A stretch of DNA of 64,000 nt from an uncultured Candidatus Saccharibacteria bacterium. GTDB taxonomy: Bacteria; Patescibacteriota; Saccharimonadia; CAILAD01; BJGX01. The DNA lies in the NCBI GenBank assembly GCA_964610335.1, contig CAZSVP010000001.1, positions 151,057 to 215,056 on the forward strand, read 5' to 3'. Below are positions 29,016 to 64,000 of the stretch, piece after piece; positions within the stretch are counted from its first letter, which is position 1, and every line of letters begins with the position of its first letter. The notes beneath the pieces were generated by a model, which had not been told where the DNA came from, made no database searches, and saw nothing but the letters and a program-made list of their open reading frames with translations. Both the position numbers and the translations under genes were made by a program.

Positions 29016-29136
29016 ATTACCATTGTAACAAAAGTACTTATGCCTGTCCTAAATTGTCTTAAGTAACAACTTAGGACAGACCCGCACAAAGCGGTGCTCA
29101 CCAGGTAATGGTAAGTTTGCCTGCCCTGTGCGGTAG

Positions 29137-29739
29137 TCAGCTGGCCAGCGCGAAGCCCGGGAGGCTGCGCTTACCCTGGAGGGTCTCGCGCACTACCTGG
29201 GCGATCAGTGGGCGCTCGGCCTGCTTGATGCGTTCATGAAGCGTTTCCTCGGTGTCACCTGTCAACACTGGCACACGCTGCTGGGCGATGATCGGGCCAT
29301 CGTCGAGCTTGGCGGTAGCCACGTGGATGGTGCAACCGGTCTCGGCTACCCCAGCTTCCAAGGCATCACGCACAGCATTGTCGCCCTTGAAGTCTGGCAG
29401 CAAAGCAGGATGGTTGTTGGTGATGCGGCCAGCGAACTTCTCGAAGATGCTTGGGCTTAGCACAGTCATGAATCCCACCATCGTGACGAAGTCGATGCCG
29501 TGTGCTTCCAGGATCTCTTCGATGCAACCGGTGTACAGCATACGATCGAAGTCGCTGCCGAAGCTGGTGCGTTCCAGGAGTACATAGTGGATGTTGTATT
29601 TGTCAGCTAGCTCGGCTGCCCGACATCCTTGTACGCGATCGGTCAATACCAGGTGTGGCCGTAGACCTTCGTCGAGCATGTGCTCCAGCAGCGTACAGCT
29701 TCCAGACACCATGGCGCACCAGCGCAGTGAAGTGTTCAT
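29137..29739 (-). CDS. purN: Phosphoribosylglycinamide formyltransferase PurN (high-GC island 1)
   Basis: NNHPALLP and GVAETGCTIHVATAKLDDGPII motifs; 200 aa; codon third positions strongly G/C. Confidence 0.8.
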   Translation of the reverse strand: MNTSLRWCAMVSGSCTLLEHMLDEGLRPHLVLTDRVQGCRAAELADKYNIHYVLLERTSFGSDFDRMLYTGCIEEILEAHGIDFVTMVGFMTVLSPSIFEKFAGRITNNHPALLPDFKGDNAVRDALEAGVAETGCTIHVATAKLDDGPIIAQQRVPVLTGDTEETLHERIKQAERPLIAQVVRETLQGKRSLPGFALAS

Positions 29740-29907
29740 GATTTGCCCCTCTTTGGGTTGTCGATGATCGGAACTGCAGCAATACTATCATAATTGACCA
29801 GATAGCACCAGATAAGCGATAATAAGCCGCAGCGAGGGCGGCGCAGCATTGTGCTGCCCTCTTCGTTTCGTTGACAATTCTCTATATTTGGAAGAAAGGA
29901 AGCTACT

Positions 29908-32900
29908 ATGCTTCGTTACTACCGACGTATGCAAACATTCGAGCCAATGTACGGCCGGATGGCTCGCGCCGTGGCCGAGCTGATGGATCCAGAAACAAGC
30001 TTTAGTGCCGAATGGTGCTATCACCTCGAGGGGCGCGGTGAACTAAGTGAGCCTGAGGTAAGTCGACTTACCTACTTGCTCAGCGAGACGTTTGATCCCG
30101 AGGGCTTCAGCTCAGTAACTTGGCTAACCAACAGCTCAGGTGCGTTGGAGCTTGGCCCCCGGCCGAACTTCGAGACGGCGGCCAGCTCGACCAGTCTCAA
30201 CGTGCTTCGCAAGATCGGCATCGATGGTTTCACTCGCGTGGAGCGCAGTTGGCGGATCGGTTTGAGTGAGTTGCCAGAGCCACTTGGCTTGGCCATGTTG
30301 GCCGAAGAGCTGCACGATCGCATGACCGAGATGGTCTACGACGATCCACCACTCAGCTTCCAGCTCGATAGCAGGCCAGAGCCAACCTTTACCATTGCCA
30401 TGATGGAGCATGGCCTGGACGCTCTGTTGCGGTTCAACAGCCAACGCGAGCTGGGCTTCGACAGCGAAGACTGCGAATGGCTGATGTGGCTGTTTGTGGA
30501 TCACATGGGACGCAACCCCACCAACGTAGAGCTCAACATGCTGGCTCAGGCCATGAGTGACCATAGTCGGCACACCATCTGGCGAGCCATCTTGGTACGC
30601 GGTGGCGAGCAGCTCGATTACACCTTGTGGGAGCTGATCCAGCGACCACTACAACGCCATCGCGGTAACGTGTTGGTTGGCTTTGCCGACGACAGCTCAG
30701 CTATCGCTGGCTACGAAGTTGACGTATTGATGTGTGAGTCCCAAGCCGGACCAGCGCAGCTGTACGTTGCTCGTAGGGCACGAGCCATCATTTGCACTGG
30801 CGAGACCCACAACCACCCCAGCGGTGTAGAGCCCTACCAAGGCGCCTACACAGGTGGTACGGGCATGCTGCGTGATGTGTTCTCGATGGGACAAGGCAGC
30901 TTCTTGGGCACCGTCGGATCCGGCTATGCTGTCGGAAGGCTGGCCCTGCCTGGACTTGGCTGGACTCATGTACCCGGTCCGTGGATCGAGCAGACCAAGT
31001 TGCTGGTCGAGGCCAGCAATGGCCTCAGTGACGGCATGAACTGTCAGGGCGTACCAGTCACTGGGGGCTGGGTACAAAGTTACAGCCACACTGAGCCTTC
31101 GGGCCAACATGTGGGCTGGGAGTGCAAACCAATCGTGCATGCTCAGGGCACCGGCACCATCGACATGGACATGCTCCATGGCGAAAAGCCCCAACCCGGG
31201 CAGTGCATGGTGCTACTAGGTGGACCAAACTACCGCATCGGCATGGGAGGCGCCAGTGCTAGCAGTGTGCCTTCGGGTGAGAACACTGCCCAGGCCGACT
31301 TCGACTCGGTGCAGCGCGGTGATGCCGAGATGCAACAGCGCGTCTATCGAGTTGTGAAGGCGCTGGTCGAGGTAGGTATACGGCGTGGTAACAGTGTCAT
31401 CAAGCTGGTCCACGATCTGGGGGCTGGTGGTAACTGCAACGCCATCCCCGAGGCTGCCGAAGGCGCAGGAGCGCGGGTTTGGGCTGATCGGTTTGCGATT
31501 GCCGATCCGACGCTCAGCGACGAGGAGCTGTTTGCCAACGAGTCACAAGAACGTGAAGTAATTGTGATTGAATCGGCTGATTGGCCATTGGTGCAGCAAA
31601 TCGCCCAGCGCGAGAACTGTCCAGCTCAGAATGTAGGCGACATCACCGGCGACGGCAGGATCCAACTGGTGGGTCGAGACGGCGAGCTGGCAGTCGATAT
31701 GGTGCTCGACGACTTCTTGGGTCGCAAGATGCAGAAGCGGCGTGAGTTTGAGCCTTGGGTGCCTCAGTTGCGGCCATTGCAGCTACCCTATGTTGAGATC
31801 TCTGACATGCTGGAACGGGTGCTTCAACTACCGTCGGTGGCCTCGAAACGCTACCTCACCAGCAAGGCTGATCGCAGTGTCGGTGGCTTGGTGGCACAGC
31901 AGCAGTGTGTGGGGCCTTGGCAACTCACATTGGCCGACTTCAGCCTCGAAGCTCACGGCTTCTTTGGCGACACTGGCACAGCACGTGCCTTTGGCGAGGC
32001 CGCCATTGTGTGCTTGGTCGATCCCGAAGAGGCTGCACGCCTATCAGTGTGTGAAGCAGTGATGAACCTCATGGGTGTGCGCCTCAGCGACGTGCTGGAA
32101 GCGAGTTTGCAGGTCAACTGGATGTGGGCGGCGCGAGCTGACATGGATCGCTATCAGCGGGCCGTGAAGGCTCTCAGCGATTACTGTTGTGAGCTTGAAC
32201 TGCCCACCGAAGTCGGTCATGGCCTAGCGCCAGATGGTGGCAAGGACAGCAACAGCTTGCAGCGCACCATGGCCGATGGCAGTGTGGTGGTGGCGCCAGG
32301 ACAAGCGGTAACCACCGCCTATGGCCCGGTGCCAAACGTTGCCAAGAAGGTCACGCCCGACATCAAGGCCCGACAGCGGGGCTTTACCGGTTCCAAGATG
32401 GTCTGGGTGAGATTCAGCAACTGGAGTCCAGCACTCGGCGGATCGGCATTGGCACAGGCCTACGATCAGTTGGGCGACGAGGCTCCCAAAGCTGCCCCGC
32501 CCCAAGAGCTGCTCCGGCTTAAGCGTGTGATTGATGGCTGGATCGACCAAGGCTACATCTTGGCGCTCCACGACGTTGGTCAAGGAGGCCTCGTCACTGC
32601 GGTGGCGGAGATGGCGTCCGGCGGCGGCTGCGGCGTACTGCTCGACTTCCAGCTCAACGGCTATTCGGCGGAAGGGTTGTTGTTTGGCGAGTCACCAGGG
32701 CTGCTACTGGAAGTTCCAGATAGCAAGCTGTATACGTTCTTGACGAGCTTGCGAGAGCAAGGACTATTGGCAGATGCAATTGGTCGCACACATCCTGACT
32801 GGCATACCAACAAAGGGCTGCAAATCAAGTGTGATGGCCGCGTTGTACTCCAACAGCCGCTTGTGCGGTTGCTGGAGTGGTGGGAGCAGACCAGCTATGT

Positions 32901-62982: not shown

Positions 62983-63095
62983 TTAACAACTAATCATTGT
63001 CGAGGACTAACAGTGGTTCTTTTTTGATGCATAACGTGAAAGATCCACGGCTGATTATGAGTCAACCGCGGACCTGACACCCTCCTGAGTCACTT

Positions 63096-63770
63096 TCAGT
63101 TCTCGAGCGCTTTCTTCACCTTGTTTCGCACGGCCAGATGGGCTTGACGATCTTGTGCCGCCTGAACCTGCATGGGCTCGACCAGCTTGATCAGCTCGTC
63201 GGTGGTGACAACCTGGGCAAAGAGATAACGCATGCGCTCGATGGCCGCCCGGTGCGCCTCCTGGGCCGAAAGCGACCCGGTAGCCTGCGATGCGCAGGCG
63301 TCCTCTACTACCACCACCTGGAAGCCAGCCATCATGAGTGCATCCACCGTGGTCTGCACACAGATGGGCGTGGTGAGGCCACAAACCACGACCGGTGTCG
63401 AACATCTCTCGACAAGGCCGCCCAACAGCTCGGGGCTCTGAAGTGCATTGAAGCGGGTCTTGCCGATGACCTCGTCGCCGGCTTCGTAGATGCCCTCGTG
63501 GAACTCGGCGAGAGGAGATCCCGCCTGGAGCGCATCGTAGATGTGCGGGATGAAGTCTCCCAGGCGTCCTACTTGATTGGGTGAGTGGTAGACATGCTTG
63601 GTGAGCGTGATGGTCTTCTGGTCGGCATGCCAGAGTGCGGCCAGTCGCCTCATGTTGTGAAGCGCTGGCTCCACGTCGGGTACTTCTACCACTTCGCCAA
63701 AGGCTTTCTGTGGGTCAACCACCAAAAGGGTGGCTAGCTGATACATATAGCCGTCTAGCAGGTAGTCCAT
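63096..63770 (-). CDS. Isochorismatase-family cysteine hydrolase (nicotinamidase PncA-like), high-GC island 8
   Basis: VVVCGLTTPICVQTTVDALMMAGFQVVVVEDACAS catalytic-Cys region; GGAGG RBS before the ATG. Confidence 0.65.
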   Translation of the reverse strand: MDYLLDGYMYQLATLLVVDPQKAFGEVVEVPDVEPALHNMRRLAALWHADQKTITLTKHVYHSPNQVGRLGDFIPHIYDALQAGSPLAEFHEGIYEAGDEVIGKTRFNALQSPELLGGLVERCSTPVVVCGLTTPICVQTTVDALMMAGFQVVVVEDACASQATGSLSAQEAHRAAIERMRYLFAQVVTTDELIKLVEPMQVQAAQDRQAHLAVRNKVKKALEN

Positions 63771-63860
63771 ATCCTTACCTCCTGATTGGGTTTTGTAGGA
63801 CGCTACGATATTAACATACAGCTTTTACTATTAACTTACAGATGTTAATATTAGGTAGAT

Positions 63861-64000
63861 ATGGGTAAATCAAAAACAACATCACTCGAGGCGCTCGGGC
63901 TTTCTACCAACGAGGCTGAGTGTTATTTAGTACTGTTAAAGGAGGGGGCATTGACCGTGTCACAGATTGCTAAGTATCTCGAGGTGTTGCCAAACGCTGT
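63861..64000 (+). CDS. N-terminal fragment of a TrmB-like winged-HTH transcriptional regulator (continues beyond the window)
   Basis: MGKSKTTSLEALGLSTNEAECYLVLLKEGALTVSQIAKYL... HTH pattern. Confidence 0.45.
   Translation, partial: MGKSKTTSLEALGLSTNEAECYLVLLKEGALTVSQIAKYLEVLPNA

Follow-up and report, generated by a model that had tools for sequence, protein, structure and literature searches.

How does a low-GC chromosome come to carry, within 35 kb, a dense series of short GC-rich blocks? The whole stretch of DNA analysed here (the window, 64,000 nucleotides) belongs to a freshwater Saccharibacteria (Patescibacteria/CPR) chromosome and lies next to oriC. At its start lie dnaA and a locus for type IV secretion, and the relatives of its tsaD are all Saccharibacteria lake MAGs. 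A GC scan found no island from 1 to 29 kb and about ten sharply GC-rich, mostly single-gene inserts from 29 to 64 kb. By their coordinates these total ~13-14 kb, about 40% of that interval; the first-pass annotation was right to call their density high. It had read them as very recent, unameliorated acquisitions from high-GC donors or as a chimeric artefact, an interpretation that our analysis partly supports. We consider it likely that they are real accessory cassettes that descend from high-GC sequence and differ in age, occupy hot spots in the spacers between conserved core genes, pass from strain to strain within the population and lose their foreign composition slowly. The islands are as follows.

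29137..29739, minus strand: island 1a, purN (GAR formyltransferase), 200 aa; Pfam Formyl_trans_N, E=2e-32; GC 0.587, GC3 0.71
29908..33813, plus strand: island 1b, purL (single-chain FGAM synthase), 1301 aa; GC 0.593, GC3 0.67; terminator hairpin 33834-33865
36911..37219, minus strand: island 2a, ORFan, 102 aa; GC 0.618, GC3 0.76; terminator 36885..36858
37216..37728, minus strand: island 2b, ORFan, 170 aa; GC 0.556, GC3 0.56; promoter-like site 37780..37752
37850..38635, minus strand: island 2c, Ala/Glu/Gln-rich ORFan, ~261 aa; GC 0.65, GC3 0.84; promoter TTGACA-17-TAATAT at 38786..38758
42162..43223, minus strand: island 3, structured non-coding RNA gene, 1,062 nt; GC about 0.60; promoter TTGACA-17-TATTAT at 43254..43226
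47830..48285, plus strand: island 4, ORFan, 151 aa; GC 0.61, GC3 0.70 (computed on the longer ORF 47725-48285); promoter TTGACA-17-TAGAAT at 47725-47753
49290..50183, minus strand: island 5, predicted lipoprotein with HExxH...E (zincin-like), 297 aa; GC 0.63, GC3 0.82
51440..52561, minus strand: island 6, divergent purM (AIR synthase), 373 aa; GC 0.617, GC3 0.79
59515..62129, plus strand: island 7, major-vault-protein (MVP)-like gene, ~871 aa when intact; Pfam MVP_shoulder and Vault_3; GC 0.65, GC3 0.84-0.86
63096..63770, minus strand: island 8, isochorismatase-family hydrolase, 224 aa; Pfam Isochorismatase, E=7e-28 (weak matches only in NCBIfam); GC 0.596, GC3 0.72

The islands are compositionally foreign but carry native-type signals

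Sliding-window GC and per-gene GC3 place the blocks within about 50-100 bp of the boundaries first drawn by eye. The compositional contrast is real, although the islands reach 56-65% GC per gene rather than the 60-68% first estimated, against a backbone of about 43-52%. In sliding windows the backbone lies at about 0.40-0.52 and the discrete blocks at 0.56-0.69. Per gene, the islands range over GC 0.556-0.651 and GC3 0.56-0.86, and the backbone over GC 0.43-0.525 and GC3 0.36-0.605. Over the whole window, GC3 is 0.757±0.086 for 11 island ORFs versus 0.455±0.053 for 40 backbone genes (Mann-Whitney p = 5.6e-7); a single island ORF, the poorest in GC (0.56), lies within the backbone range. The foreign composition, which the first-pass annotation had also perceived, is not confined to synonymous sites. 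Codon usage differs from that of the backbone, GARP residues make up 0.30 of island versus 0.25 of backbone proteins and FYMINK residues 0.18 versus 0.27, and tetranucleotide correlations are 0.67-0.89 among protein-coding islands but about 0 between the islands and the first 29 kb. These coding sequences bear the signature of long evolution in a ~60-70% GC genome, which argues for horizontal transfer as their ultimate origin. No donor lineage was found for any island, and the high-GC donor is therefore read from composition.

The GC step falls at the ends of the coding sequences, and GC is only 0.34-0.52 in the 120 nt that precede each island gene. As the earlier reading had it, each unit is one gene or a tiny operon: most cassettes comprise a single gene, and two comprise two or three. 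All have an AT-rich sigma-70 promoter of the Saccharibacteria type, a ribosome-binding site (GGAGG) and a terminator hairpin. Even the strain-specific, youngest cassette has such a promoter, which would be unexpected for direct import from a 65% GC genome.

The junctions are genuine and the slots are conserved

An independent Logan contig, L033, is 100% identical to the window over 15,946 bp and spans five junctions, and L034 and L035 are 100% identical across the lipoprotein cassette. In contigs from other samples (L014-L020, L023, L026, L027) the islands recur at matching positions; no relative retrieved includes the slot of island 8. These contigs (L014/L015/L016, L017-L020, L023, L026, L027) stem from different studies, and they reproduce the junctions in diverged sequence; purN/purL occupies its slot in ENA and Logan contigs from >10 samples. 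The island junctions are thus genuine. Several Logan contigs (L027-L031, L034, L035) stop exactly at island edges, the outcome expected from presence/absence polymorphism.

The suspicion that high-GC community fragments were spliced into a low-GC contig during assembly or binning had some basis, since the genome is evidently metagenome-derived and such contig ends might be taken as breakpoints. It is effectively refuted by L033 and by the divergent copies of the junctions in other studies, and promoters and terminators are fitted precisely to each gene; we regard a chimera as extremely improbable.

More distant relatives keep the backbone order groEL-unk298-pgm-fem-fem-tsaD-unk268-valS-unk283-unk274 and lack the islands between these genes. 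One gene first counted as native, nudix237, is itself an accessory gene: it is missing from these relatives, and its GC3 of 0.605 is the top of the backbone range.

Purine genes: a probably old pair and an exchanged allele

The purL product passes the NF003672 cut-off (974.6 bits versus 783), and purN scores slightly below that of TIGR00639 (141.9 bits). In L014-L020, as in the window, purL lies between a MauE-like membrane gene and memb267. The closest purL clusters are 91% and 58% identical, and everything outside its clade is at most 42% identical. The purL of L017 is 59% identical to that of the window, while the flanking proteins are 68-83% identical; the GC3 of purL is 0.67-0.71. The purN gene, which L014 and L017 carry at the corresponding position, shows star-like divergence: the three alleles are mutually only 69-76% identical, while the flanks are 93-97% identical between window and L014 and 68-83% between window and L017. 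Judged from these sequences, purN/purL appears old enough to be shared across a whole sub-clade.

The purM gene is divergent (129 bits against a TIGR00878 cut-off of 236, with matches to PDB PurM structures down to E=1.5e-28), and an 11-nt inverted repeat flanks the island (51415 and 52585). The window allele is only 45% identical to those of L026 and L008, which are 92% identical to each other, whereas the adjacent blocks retain 89-95% nucleotide identity between the same strains. At the 5' end, promoter, 5'UTR and first codons are conserved between the allele classes, as are, at the 3' end, the last ~12 codons and the terminator. The body of the cassette has been replaced between close strains and its ends conserved.

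ORFan and lipoprotein cassettes reuse the same slots

Four island proteins belong to no family in Pfam, NCBIfam or PHROG. Island 2a, without a match in any of the three, recurs in L014 (83% identity) and L027. Island 2c lies immediately downstream of groEL, and the ORFs in this slot in L001, L005 and L006 are only 17-20% identical to it, with no detectable homology; they are strongly GC-rich in L001 (GC3 0.89) and moderately so in L005 and L006 (0.63 and 0.66). Island 4, whose 5'UTR hairpin is complementary to its 3'UTR, has a homologue in L008 (70% identity) and another in L026, there with an additional 159-aa high-GC ORF.

The lipoprotein lies in a strain-specific segment (49182-50305) with its own promoter (TTGACA-17-TAGTAT at 50273..50245). 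Its copies in L033-L035 are 100% identical, and in L026 the cassette is replaced by 26 nt. The nudix|tsaD slot thus holds the lipoprotein in the window, a different cassette (a 137-aa ORF) in L008 and nothing in L026; like the slot downstream of groEL, it is a hot spot reused by different cassettes. Among 1.84 billion representatives the nearest relative of the protein is 34% identical. The family conserves H169, E170, H173 and E194; an AF2 model (pLDDT 84) gave only weak M1-peptidase matches (E about 0.2).

Strains that are 92-95% identical differ in this cassette and in their purM allele, and such presence/absence differences and allele replacement show that turnover is ongoing.

Island 3 is a structured RNA gene

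The first-pass annotation had called 42190-43210 non-coding. It is indeed not protein-coding, but it is a gene: an undescribed, promoter-driven, lineage-specific structured RNA of ~1 kb, not inserted coding DNA. Its folding gives z-scores of -12.5 (minus strand) and -7.5 (plus strand), and 43 of 303 predicted pairs show compensatory changes (14.6±2.7 in shuffles, 1-7 in slid controls). Against L008, 17 of 18 indels are not multiples of three. The promoter is conserved, and the 5' 600 nt are 98% identical to L014, where neighbouring unk298 is 78% identical. The RNA is missing from the pgm-unk298 spacer of distant relatives and had no match in phage and plasmid collections. Its GC richness reflects its RNA helices.

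The RNA resembles GOLLD, ROOL and OLE (PMC12286853, PMC5737381) in its size near 1 kb, many covarying helices, own promoter, UUCG and CUUG tetraloops and narrow phylogenetic range, here a single Saccharibacteria sub-clade from which about four distinct sequences are known. Unlike them, it matches no Rfam 15 family by sequence or structure, even at E<10, and lies neither in a prophage nor beside tRNAs.

The MVP-like gene departs from the rule of its family

Beginning ~315 bp downstream of a tRNA-Arg, the MVP-like gene of the window is a single gene disrupted by the loss of one nucleotide near 60284; alignment to L023 shows a missing C. The L023 orthologue is intact (871 aa, 94% identity) and is followed by four extra high-GC genes. 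With Vault_3 and MVP_shoulder, the protein resembles other bacterial MVP-like (vault shoulder/SPFH) proteins, whose family (~830-870 aa) occurs widely in Patescibacteria and in further phyla. It differs from them as a compositional outlier with a frameshift. In 59 metagenomic loci the GC of the gene follows that of its flanks (median +0.024, above +0.08 in only 3 of 59), whereas the excess in the window is an estimated +0.18 or so (0.65 versus ~0.47 in the flanks). The excess is therefore not intrinsic to the gene family.

In the closest relatives, L024, L116 and L117, the gene likewise forms a GC island, each time in other surroundings, which suggests a persistent high-GC reservoir or a GC-maintaining process. 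Moreover, MVP adjoins unk274 both in the window (GC3 0.85) and in the 40% GC relative L021 (GC3 0.37, 73% identical), an adjacency not easily explained by a single ancient acquisition with uniform amelioration.

Age and origin of the cassettes

Polarised substitutions in island 2 (52 S>W, 36 W>S) fit the mutation regime of the backbone, whose per-site rates predict 55:30, and so point to slow amelioration, though power is low and 1:1 is not rejected (p about 0.1). The shared, probably older islands have lower GC3. Most islands are not very recent; recent or direct acquisition does not hold for all of them. Within the window no island has an integrase, transposase or att-like repeat next to it, and we therefore infer how the islands inserted. 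The high-GC coding sequences would have come ultimately by horizontal transfer from a ~60-70% GC genome. Once domesticated, a cassette may move between related Saccharibacteria by DNA uptake and by recombination for which conserved flanks, or the conserved ends of the cassette itself, serve as anchors. At fixed slots, cassettes would thereby be gained or lost, or have their whole body replaced by another allele, with composition decaying slowly toward the backbone.

The first-pass reading, in which all islands came very recently, directly and unameliorated from high-GC donors such as the actinobacterial host of an epibiont, seems to us improbable as a general statement. Saccharibacteria are naturally competent epibionts of high-GC Actinobacteria, codon usage is of high-GC type with GC3 up to 0.86, and the two strain-level polymorphisms would fit recent arrival. 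However, purN/purL and island 2 sit in the same slots in diverged relatives, all cassettes have AT-rich consensus promoters, and the single-chain purL is not the usual actinobacterial form. The per-island best matches do not lead to a high-GC donor either: no near-identical one exists among 5.8 billion or 1.84 billion proteins, purL and the lipoprotein stay at or below the 42% and 34% given above, MVP shows nothing beyond a Patescibacteria-like gradient, and four of the proteins have no family at all. Repeated seeding of chromosomal slots by an unrecognised high-GC mobile element of Saccharibacteria, be it phage, plasmid or integrative element, could account for the unknowns being mostly ORFans, the phage auxiliary-gene PHROGs matched by purN and purM, the tRNA-Arg upstream of MVP and the large serine recombinase beside the L116 MVP island. 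This too is unlikely, as the 64-kb window holds no recombinase, the lipoprotein and purM have no relatives in IMG/VR, the RNA is unmatched in phage and plasmid collections, and no ORFan cassette occurs in two different contexts among the loci compared.

Local enrichment without a foreign donor, through GC-biased gene conversion (gBGC) or mRNA-level selection in loci that are recombination hot spots or selected genes, would explain why the GC step stops at coding ends with promoters still AT-rich, and is in keeping with the frequent allelic exchange at purN and purM, with complementary transcript ends in island 4 that suggest selection on transcript structure, and with GC-elevated close MVP relatives in at least four backbones, including the syntenic L021 at +0.10. 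Yet relatives lack the islands rather than carrying them at low GC, MVP normally matches its genome, amino-acid composition is shifted as well, and the backbone-like spectrum of island 2 has a net S>W excess. To our knowledge, a GC3 excess of 30-40 points is far beyond reported effects of bacterial gBGC. We hold this account improbable and prefer slowly ameliorating, exchanged cassettes of high-GC ancestry.

Such cassettes share with the horizontally acquired, slowly ameliorating islets of the Lawrence and Ochman model a GC content and codon usage that are atypical, a patchy phyletic distribution and a composition that gradually approaches that of the host. They differ in being dense units of 1-3 genes without mobility genes, each with a native-type promoter and no identifiable donor. 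Like integron gene cassettes they are modular, single-ORF and exchangeable, but they are scattered with their own promoters, and the window has no intI, attC, attI, array or common boundary motif. Streamlined aquatic bacteria such as SAR11 and Prochlorococcus have flexible (metagenomic) genomic islands, hypervariable slots that are multi-gene and differ little in GC from the core; the present cassettes are mostly single genes, 15-20 GC points off the core. What they have in common with those slots is that strains of one population gain, lose or replace units at fixed positions flanked by syntenic core genes, L026 and window/L033 appearing, from their accession numbers, to belong to the same sequencing series.

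GC-rich islands in a lower-GC backbone

GC profiles in 500-bp and 200-bp steps show a backbone of roughly 0.40–0.52 GC that is interrupted, from 29 kb on, by sharp blocks of 0.56–0.69 GC; the first 29 kb contain no such block in either profile. The blocks coincide with the positions listed by the first-pass annotation, which had described a mosaic of short high-GC inserts among native genes, and that description holds, with slightly corrected numbers, in the GC profile, in third-codon-position GC (GC3) and in tetranucleotide usage. Gene by gene, island ORFs have a GC of 0.556–0.651 and a GC3 of 0.56–0.86, and backbone genes a GC3 of 0.36–0.605. 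Over the whole window, GC3 is 0.455 ± 0.053 for 40 backbone genes versus 0.757 ± 0.086 for 11 island ORFs (Mann-Whitney p = 5.6e-7). Island proteins are also richer in Gly/Ala/Arg/Pro than backbone proteins (fraction 0.30 versus 0.25) and poorer in Phe/Tyr/Met/Ile/Asn/Lys (0.18 versus 0.27). Tetranucleotide correlations are 0.67–0.89 among islands and about zero between the islands and the first 29 kb. The codon and tetranucleotide tables of the islands are distinct from those of the backbone, as expected of a horizontally acquired islet. The GC step sits at the ends of the coding sequences, and the 120 nt 5' of each island gene have a GC of only 0.34–0.52. The mosaic is real and unusually dense.

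One additional GC bump (0.57–0.59 at 53800–54200) was rejected as an island; it stems from a Pro/Ala/Glu-rich low-complexity region inside the backbone gene unk268, whose GC3 is 0.45. The window begins with the replication-origin gene set yidC, jag, mnmE, dnaA (6379–7740), dnaN and recF, followed by a type IV secretion locus that encodes a VirB4-like protein, PrgI, pilin paralogues (several short tandem genes at 25017–27100), an M23 peptidase of 1109 aa and an amidase of 830 aa. All of these origin and secretion genes (1–27800) are at backbone composition.

Island junctions recur in other samples

The compositional contrast had raised the possibility that the segments are artificial or chimeric, which the junctions themselves refute. 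A contig from the Logan assemblies, L033, is 100% identical to the window from 41915 to 57860, a match that takes in the RNA island and spans the 151-aa, lipoprotein and purM islands from edge to edge, with five junctions, and two other Logan contigs (L034 and L035) are 100% identical across the lipoprotein cassette. Other samples repeat the junctions of purN/purL, island 2 (three ORFans), the RNA block, the 151-aa ORFan (unk151), purM and the major-vault-protein-like gene (MVP). Namely, in ENA and Logan contigs from more than 10 samples, purN/purL is flanked as in the window by the MauE-like membrane gene on one side and memb267 on the other, and island 2, the RNA block, MVP and others recur in four relatives' loci (L014, L023, L026 and L027) at 6–15% nucleotide divergence. 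Chimeric assembly is therefore effectively excluded.

Several Logan contigs (L027–L031, which start ~98 nt upstream of unk298, as well as L034 and L035) stop precisely where the RNA block or the lipoprotein cassette begins or ends. These contig ends fit assembly-graph branching at polymorphic islands.

Cassettes come and go at fixed slots

A tsaD search over one genome per species returned only MAGs of lake Saccharibacteria/Saccharimonadia, at 66–87% identity, and one unrelated match. These relatives have in common the backbone order groEL-unk298-pgm-femAB paralogues-tsaD-unk268-valS-unk283-unk274, and in those with 66–72% tsaD identity the islands are missing and each core gene directly adjoins the next. 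The distribution is patchy, with adjacent core genes lacking islands in the relatives' loci L001–L012 and L032, and with the lipoprotein cassette missing from L026. The closest species-level relative, L008 (tsaD 87%), shares the RNA block, the 151-aa ORFan and nudix237 with the window and also has a purM, all in matching slots. Two genes absent from distant relatives, nudix237 (48377–49090; its GC3 of 0.605 is the backbone maximum) and unk249 (52670–53419), are close to the backbone in composition and may be older, ameliorated insertions around tsaD.

The islands had also been read as very recent acquisitions, which applies at most to the strain-variable cassettes. The purN/purL island occupies the same slot in L017, a relative with flanks 68–83% identical to the window's, purL 59% and purN 74%. 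The GC3 of purL is 0.66–0.71 in every lineage and its GC contrast is unchanged; because the island is shared with L017 at equal contrast in each lineage, it predates a deep split. Compared with L014, proteins of the flanks are 93–100% identical, purL 91%, island 2 79–92% and purN only 76%.

At the other end of the scale, strains that are 92–95% nucleotide-identical still differ in cassette content. L026 has 26 nt in place of the window's 1.12-kb lipoprotein segment and an extra 159-aa high-GC ORF adjoining the 151-aa ORF. In another relative, L023, four more high-GC small genes follow MVP. The purM of L026 shares only 45% identity with the window allele but 92% with the allele of L008, which is more distant (window 51440–52561; L026 1–1155; L008 11324–12541), so that there are two purM allele classes, 45% identical, whose distribution does not track strain relatedness. 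Both classes share the promoter, 5'UTR, first three codons, last ~12 codons and terminator; the cassette body alone was exchanged within a conserved frame. A low-GC TPR-repeat gene (36032–36829) is likewise an insertion, absent from L014 and L027, and gene-content variation is therefore not confined to GC-rich DNA.

Individual slots have different occupants. Between nudix237 and tsaD, the window carries the lipoprotein (minus strand). L008 carries another high-GC ORF there, of 137 aa and on the plus strand, which follows the same conserved sequence, and in L026 the slot is empty. In three relatives, the slot downstream of groEL holds ORFs without detectable homology to the window's (17–20% identity).

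ORFs downstream of groEL in relatives' loci
L001, 1506–2366: GC3 0.89, inside a 40% GC backbone
L005, 992–1672: GC3 0.63
L006, 2605–3375: GC3 0.66

Since other lake Saccharibacteria have high-GC ORFs at this same slot, the phenomenon is wider than the window's lineage. All-against-all BLASTP of the high-GC ORFs of the retrieved loci found no ORFan cassette in two different contexts.

GC excess is not a property of the MVP family

Could the MVP island simply be an intrinsically GC-rich gene? We retrieved 80 metagenomic MVP loci and compared the 59 with flanks of 3 kb or more. Across a range of 0.31 to 0.73, the GC of MVP tracks that of its flanks, with a median difference of +0.024 and a difference above +0.08 in only 3 loci, and the window's MVP is ~0.18 above its own flanks. 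The family is therefore not intrinsically GC-rich, and this explanation was rejected. The closest MVP relatives nonetheless complicate a single-event story. In L024 (61% identity), MVP also forms a GC island, in other surroundings; in L116 (57%; 382–4847), it is a GC island directly after a 515-aa large serine recombinase; and L117 (GCA_964416735.1; MVP 53%) is a mosaic at 179–7906 in which genes of GC3 0.86–0.93 alternate with others of ~0.60. The MVP of L021 (73%) adjoins unk274 as in the window, at a GC3 of 0.37 with a backbone GC3 of ~0.30.

The window's MVP gene is split near 60284 by a 1-base deletion (GCCGCC to GCCGC) into ORFs of 276 and 605 aa. The L023 orthologue is intact at 871 aa, so either the sequence is in error here or the gene has only recently become a pseudogene.

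Substitutions in the window and L027 were polarised with L014 as outgroup. Island 2 has 52 GC-lowering and 36 GC-raising changes, where the per-site rates of the backbone predict 55:30 and a 1:1 ratio is not rejected (p ~0.1); the backbone count is 69:58. From these counts, island 2 appears to be under the ordinary mutation regime and slowly losing GC. We estimate an amelioration half-life of ~15 times the window-L027 divergence, which is long enough for old islands to stay conspicuous.

Origin and mobility of the cassettes

The proposal of a foreign origin is supported by composition and by absence in relatives. Protein searches with purL, MVP and the lipoprotein gave no close high-GC match, and no donor emerged for any island. 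The two nearest purL clusters, at 91% and 58%, occupy this same slot in Saccharibacteria, and all others, from many phyla, are at 42% or less. The MVP homologues form an identity gradient within Patescibacteria-like contigs. For the lipoprotein, the youngest cassette, only its own cluster among 1.84 billion representatives exceeds 50%, and the next is at 34%. Four of the island proteins match no family in Pfam, NCBIfam or PHROG.

The promoter of each cassette is consensus-like (TTGACA-17-TAnnAT) and lies in AT-rich DNA; each cassette also has a GGAGG ribosome-binding site and usually ends in a GC-rich terminator hairpin. The strain-specific lipoprotein segment contains its own promoter. The AT-rich promoters on all cassettes argue that a newly gained cassette comes directly from another Saccharibacterium rather than from a genome of 65% GC, with the high-GC ancestry lying further back.

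Two established vehicles of small gene cassettes were considered. An integron cassette array was rejected because there is no integrase, the cassettes are dispersed, and they have no boundary hairpin or motif in common; gene annotation and Pfam found no recombinase in the 64-kb window, and candidate boundary motifs such as GTTCGTC and CCGACAAC show no enrichment at the edges of islands. A prophage or phage auxiliary genes found no support: the PHROG matches of known function are only the generic purN and purM families and IMG/VR scans for the lipoprotein and purM were negative; the isochorismatase-family gene weakly matches two PHROGs of unknown function. MVP is the sole island near a tRNA gene, and the lipoprotein indel has no flanking direct repeats. 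Flanking repeats do exist, but as inverted repeats that differ from cassette to cassette. They are 10–15 nt long and flank four islands, at 51415/52585 (purM), 47795/48300 (151-aa ORFan), 29858/33831 (purL) and 42207/43174 (RNA); repeats of at least 10 nt flank 1 of 39 backbone genes. They could reflect transcript-end pairing or be recombination scars.

The best explanation of the mosaic is that its islands are accessory cassettes which differ in age, descend from high-GC DNA and have become domesticated, with one RNA gene among them. Such cassettes would occupy fixed intergenic hot spots and be exchanged among related strains, and their composition would ameliorate only slowly. Literature searches found no report of high-GC islets or pur genes in Saccharibacteria.

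Purine enzymes and a putative zincin among the cargo

The purN, single-chain purL and divergent purM genes correspond to three consecutive steps of purine synthesis, from GAR to AIR. PurL passes the NF003672 cut-off (975 bits versus 783) and does not pass TIGR01735; PurN scores 141.9 against a curated cut-off of 150.1, and PurM 129 against 236. With minimal genomes of ~1 Mb, Saccharibacteria and other CPR bacteria are thought to rely on their hosts for nucleotides. A 35-kb stretch that is ~40% compositionally foreign, with strain-variable cassettes that include these three steps, suggests that this epibiont lineage draws on an active, flexible gene pool and patches its metabolism by gene transfer. 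Fixed hot spots would make gain, loss and allele replacement trackable in lake time series, and the window serves as a worked example that sharp GC islands can occur in a MAG without any binning error.

The predicted lipoprotein (49290–50183) has an HExxH...E motif in which H169/E170 are invariant and H173/E194 present in at least 90% of 60 remote relatives. Its family is small, with about 110 remote relatives, and is not catalogued. Its AF2 model (pLDDT 84) has no significant fold match in the PDB and weakly resembles the catalytic domains of M1 peptidases (E ~0.2) in the fold search. An exact look-up matched the protein with its ATG start and not with the upstream TTG start. The remaining cargo is an isochorismatase-family hydrolase and four ORFans.

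A structured RNA gene between pgm and unk298

The GC-rich block that separates pgm from unk298 is also conserved in L026, L014 and L008; distant relatives lack it in their 350–400-nt pgm-unk298 spacer.

RNA gene
~43223 to 42162, minus strand: RNA gene of 1,062 nt, identified from its promoter, fold, compensatory pairs and indels

A conserved promoter (TTGACA-17-TATTAT at 43254..43226) points into the block on the minus strand, the strand with the stronger folding z-score (−12.5 versus −7.5 for the plus strand). The 5' 600 nt are 98% identical to L014 at the nucleotide level, and the neighboring unk298 78%. Compared with L008, 17 of 18 indels are not multiples of three. RNAalifold on four sequences gives 303 pairs in 32 helices, a structure derived from those same four; within them, 43 of the 303 pairs have compensatory double changes, compared with 14.6 ± 2.7 in shuffles (0 of 500 reach 43) and 1–7 when the partners are slid by 1–3 columns. 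The long-range closing helix (columns 36–51 with 1016–1031) contains two uncompensated A-C mismatches. The general marks of a structured non-coding RNA, namely compensatory changes, non-coding indels and its own promoter, are thus present in these four sequences and the structure derived from them.

Rfam 15 at gathering thresholds finds only tRNAs in the whole window, and at E<10 on 41800–43300 only chance-level matches with E above 2. GOLLD, ROOL, OLE, group I and II introns, RNase P and tmRNA were each rejected for want of a covariance-model match. An exact 21-mer from the most conserved segment is absent from JGI metagenomes and IMG/VR; an 18-mer hit four IMG/VR contigs, chance matches by nhmmer, and a 22-mer hit nothing. 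Furthermore, blastn against phage and plasmid collections gave no match, and nhmmer over all retrieved loci recovered syntenic copies only. We conclude that the block is a previously uncatalogued structured RNA of 1,062 nt.

On balance, we lean slightly towards a combined reading in which this RNA is the founding member of an undescribed, ornate ~1.06 kb class in a sub-clade of freshwater Saccharibacteria, and in which the lineage keeps a pool of high-GC cassettes (purine enzymes, a vault-like protein, a zincin lipoprotein and ORFans) that is shuffled at fixed hot spots. As the founder of a new class, it would be comparable in size and complexity to GOLLD, ROOL and OLE. To our knowledge, new bacterial RNAs that exceed 1 kb and covary extensively are rare; we know of almost no non-coding RNA biology in this phylum, and literature searches found no report of large non-coding RNAs in Saccharibacteria. 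The RNA would be a candidate for structural and functional study. Among close relatives, its 5' two-thirds are near-invariant, and the variable 3' third has many compensatory changes and lineage-specific hairpin insertions.
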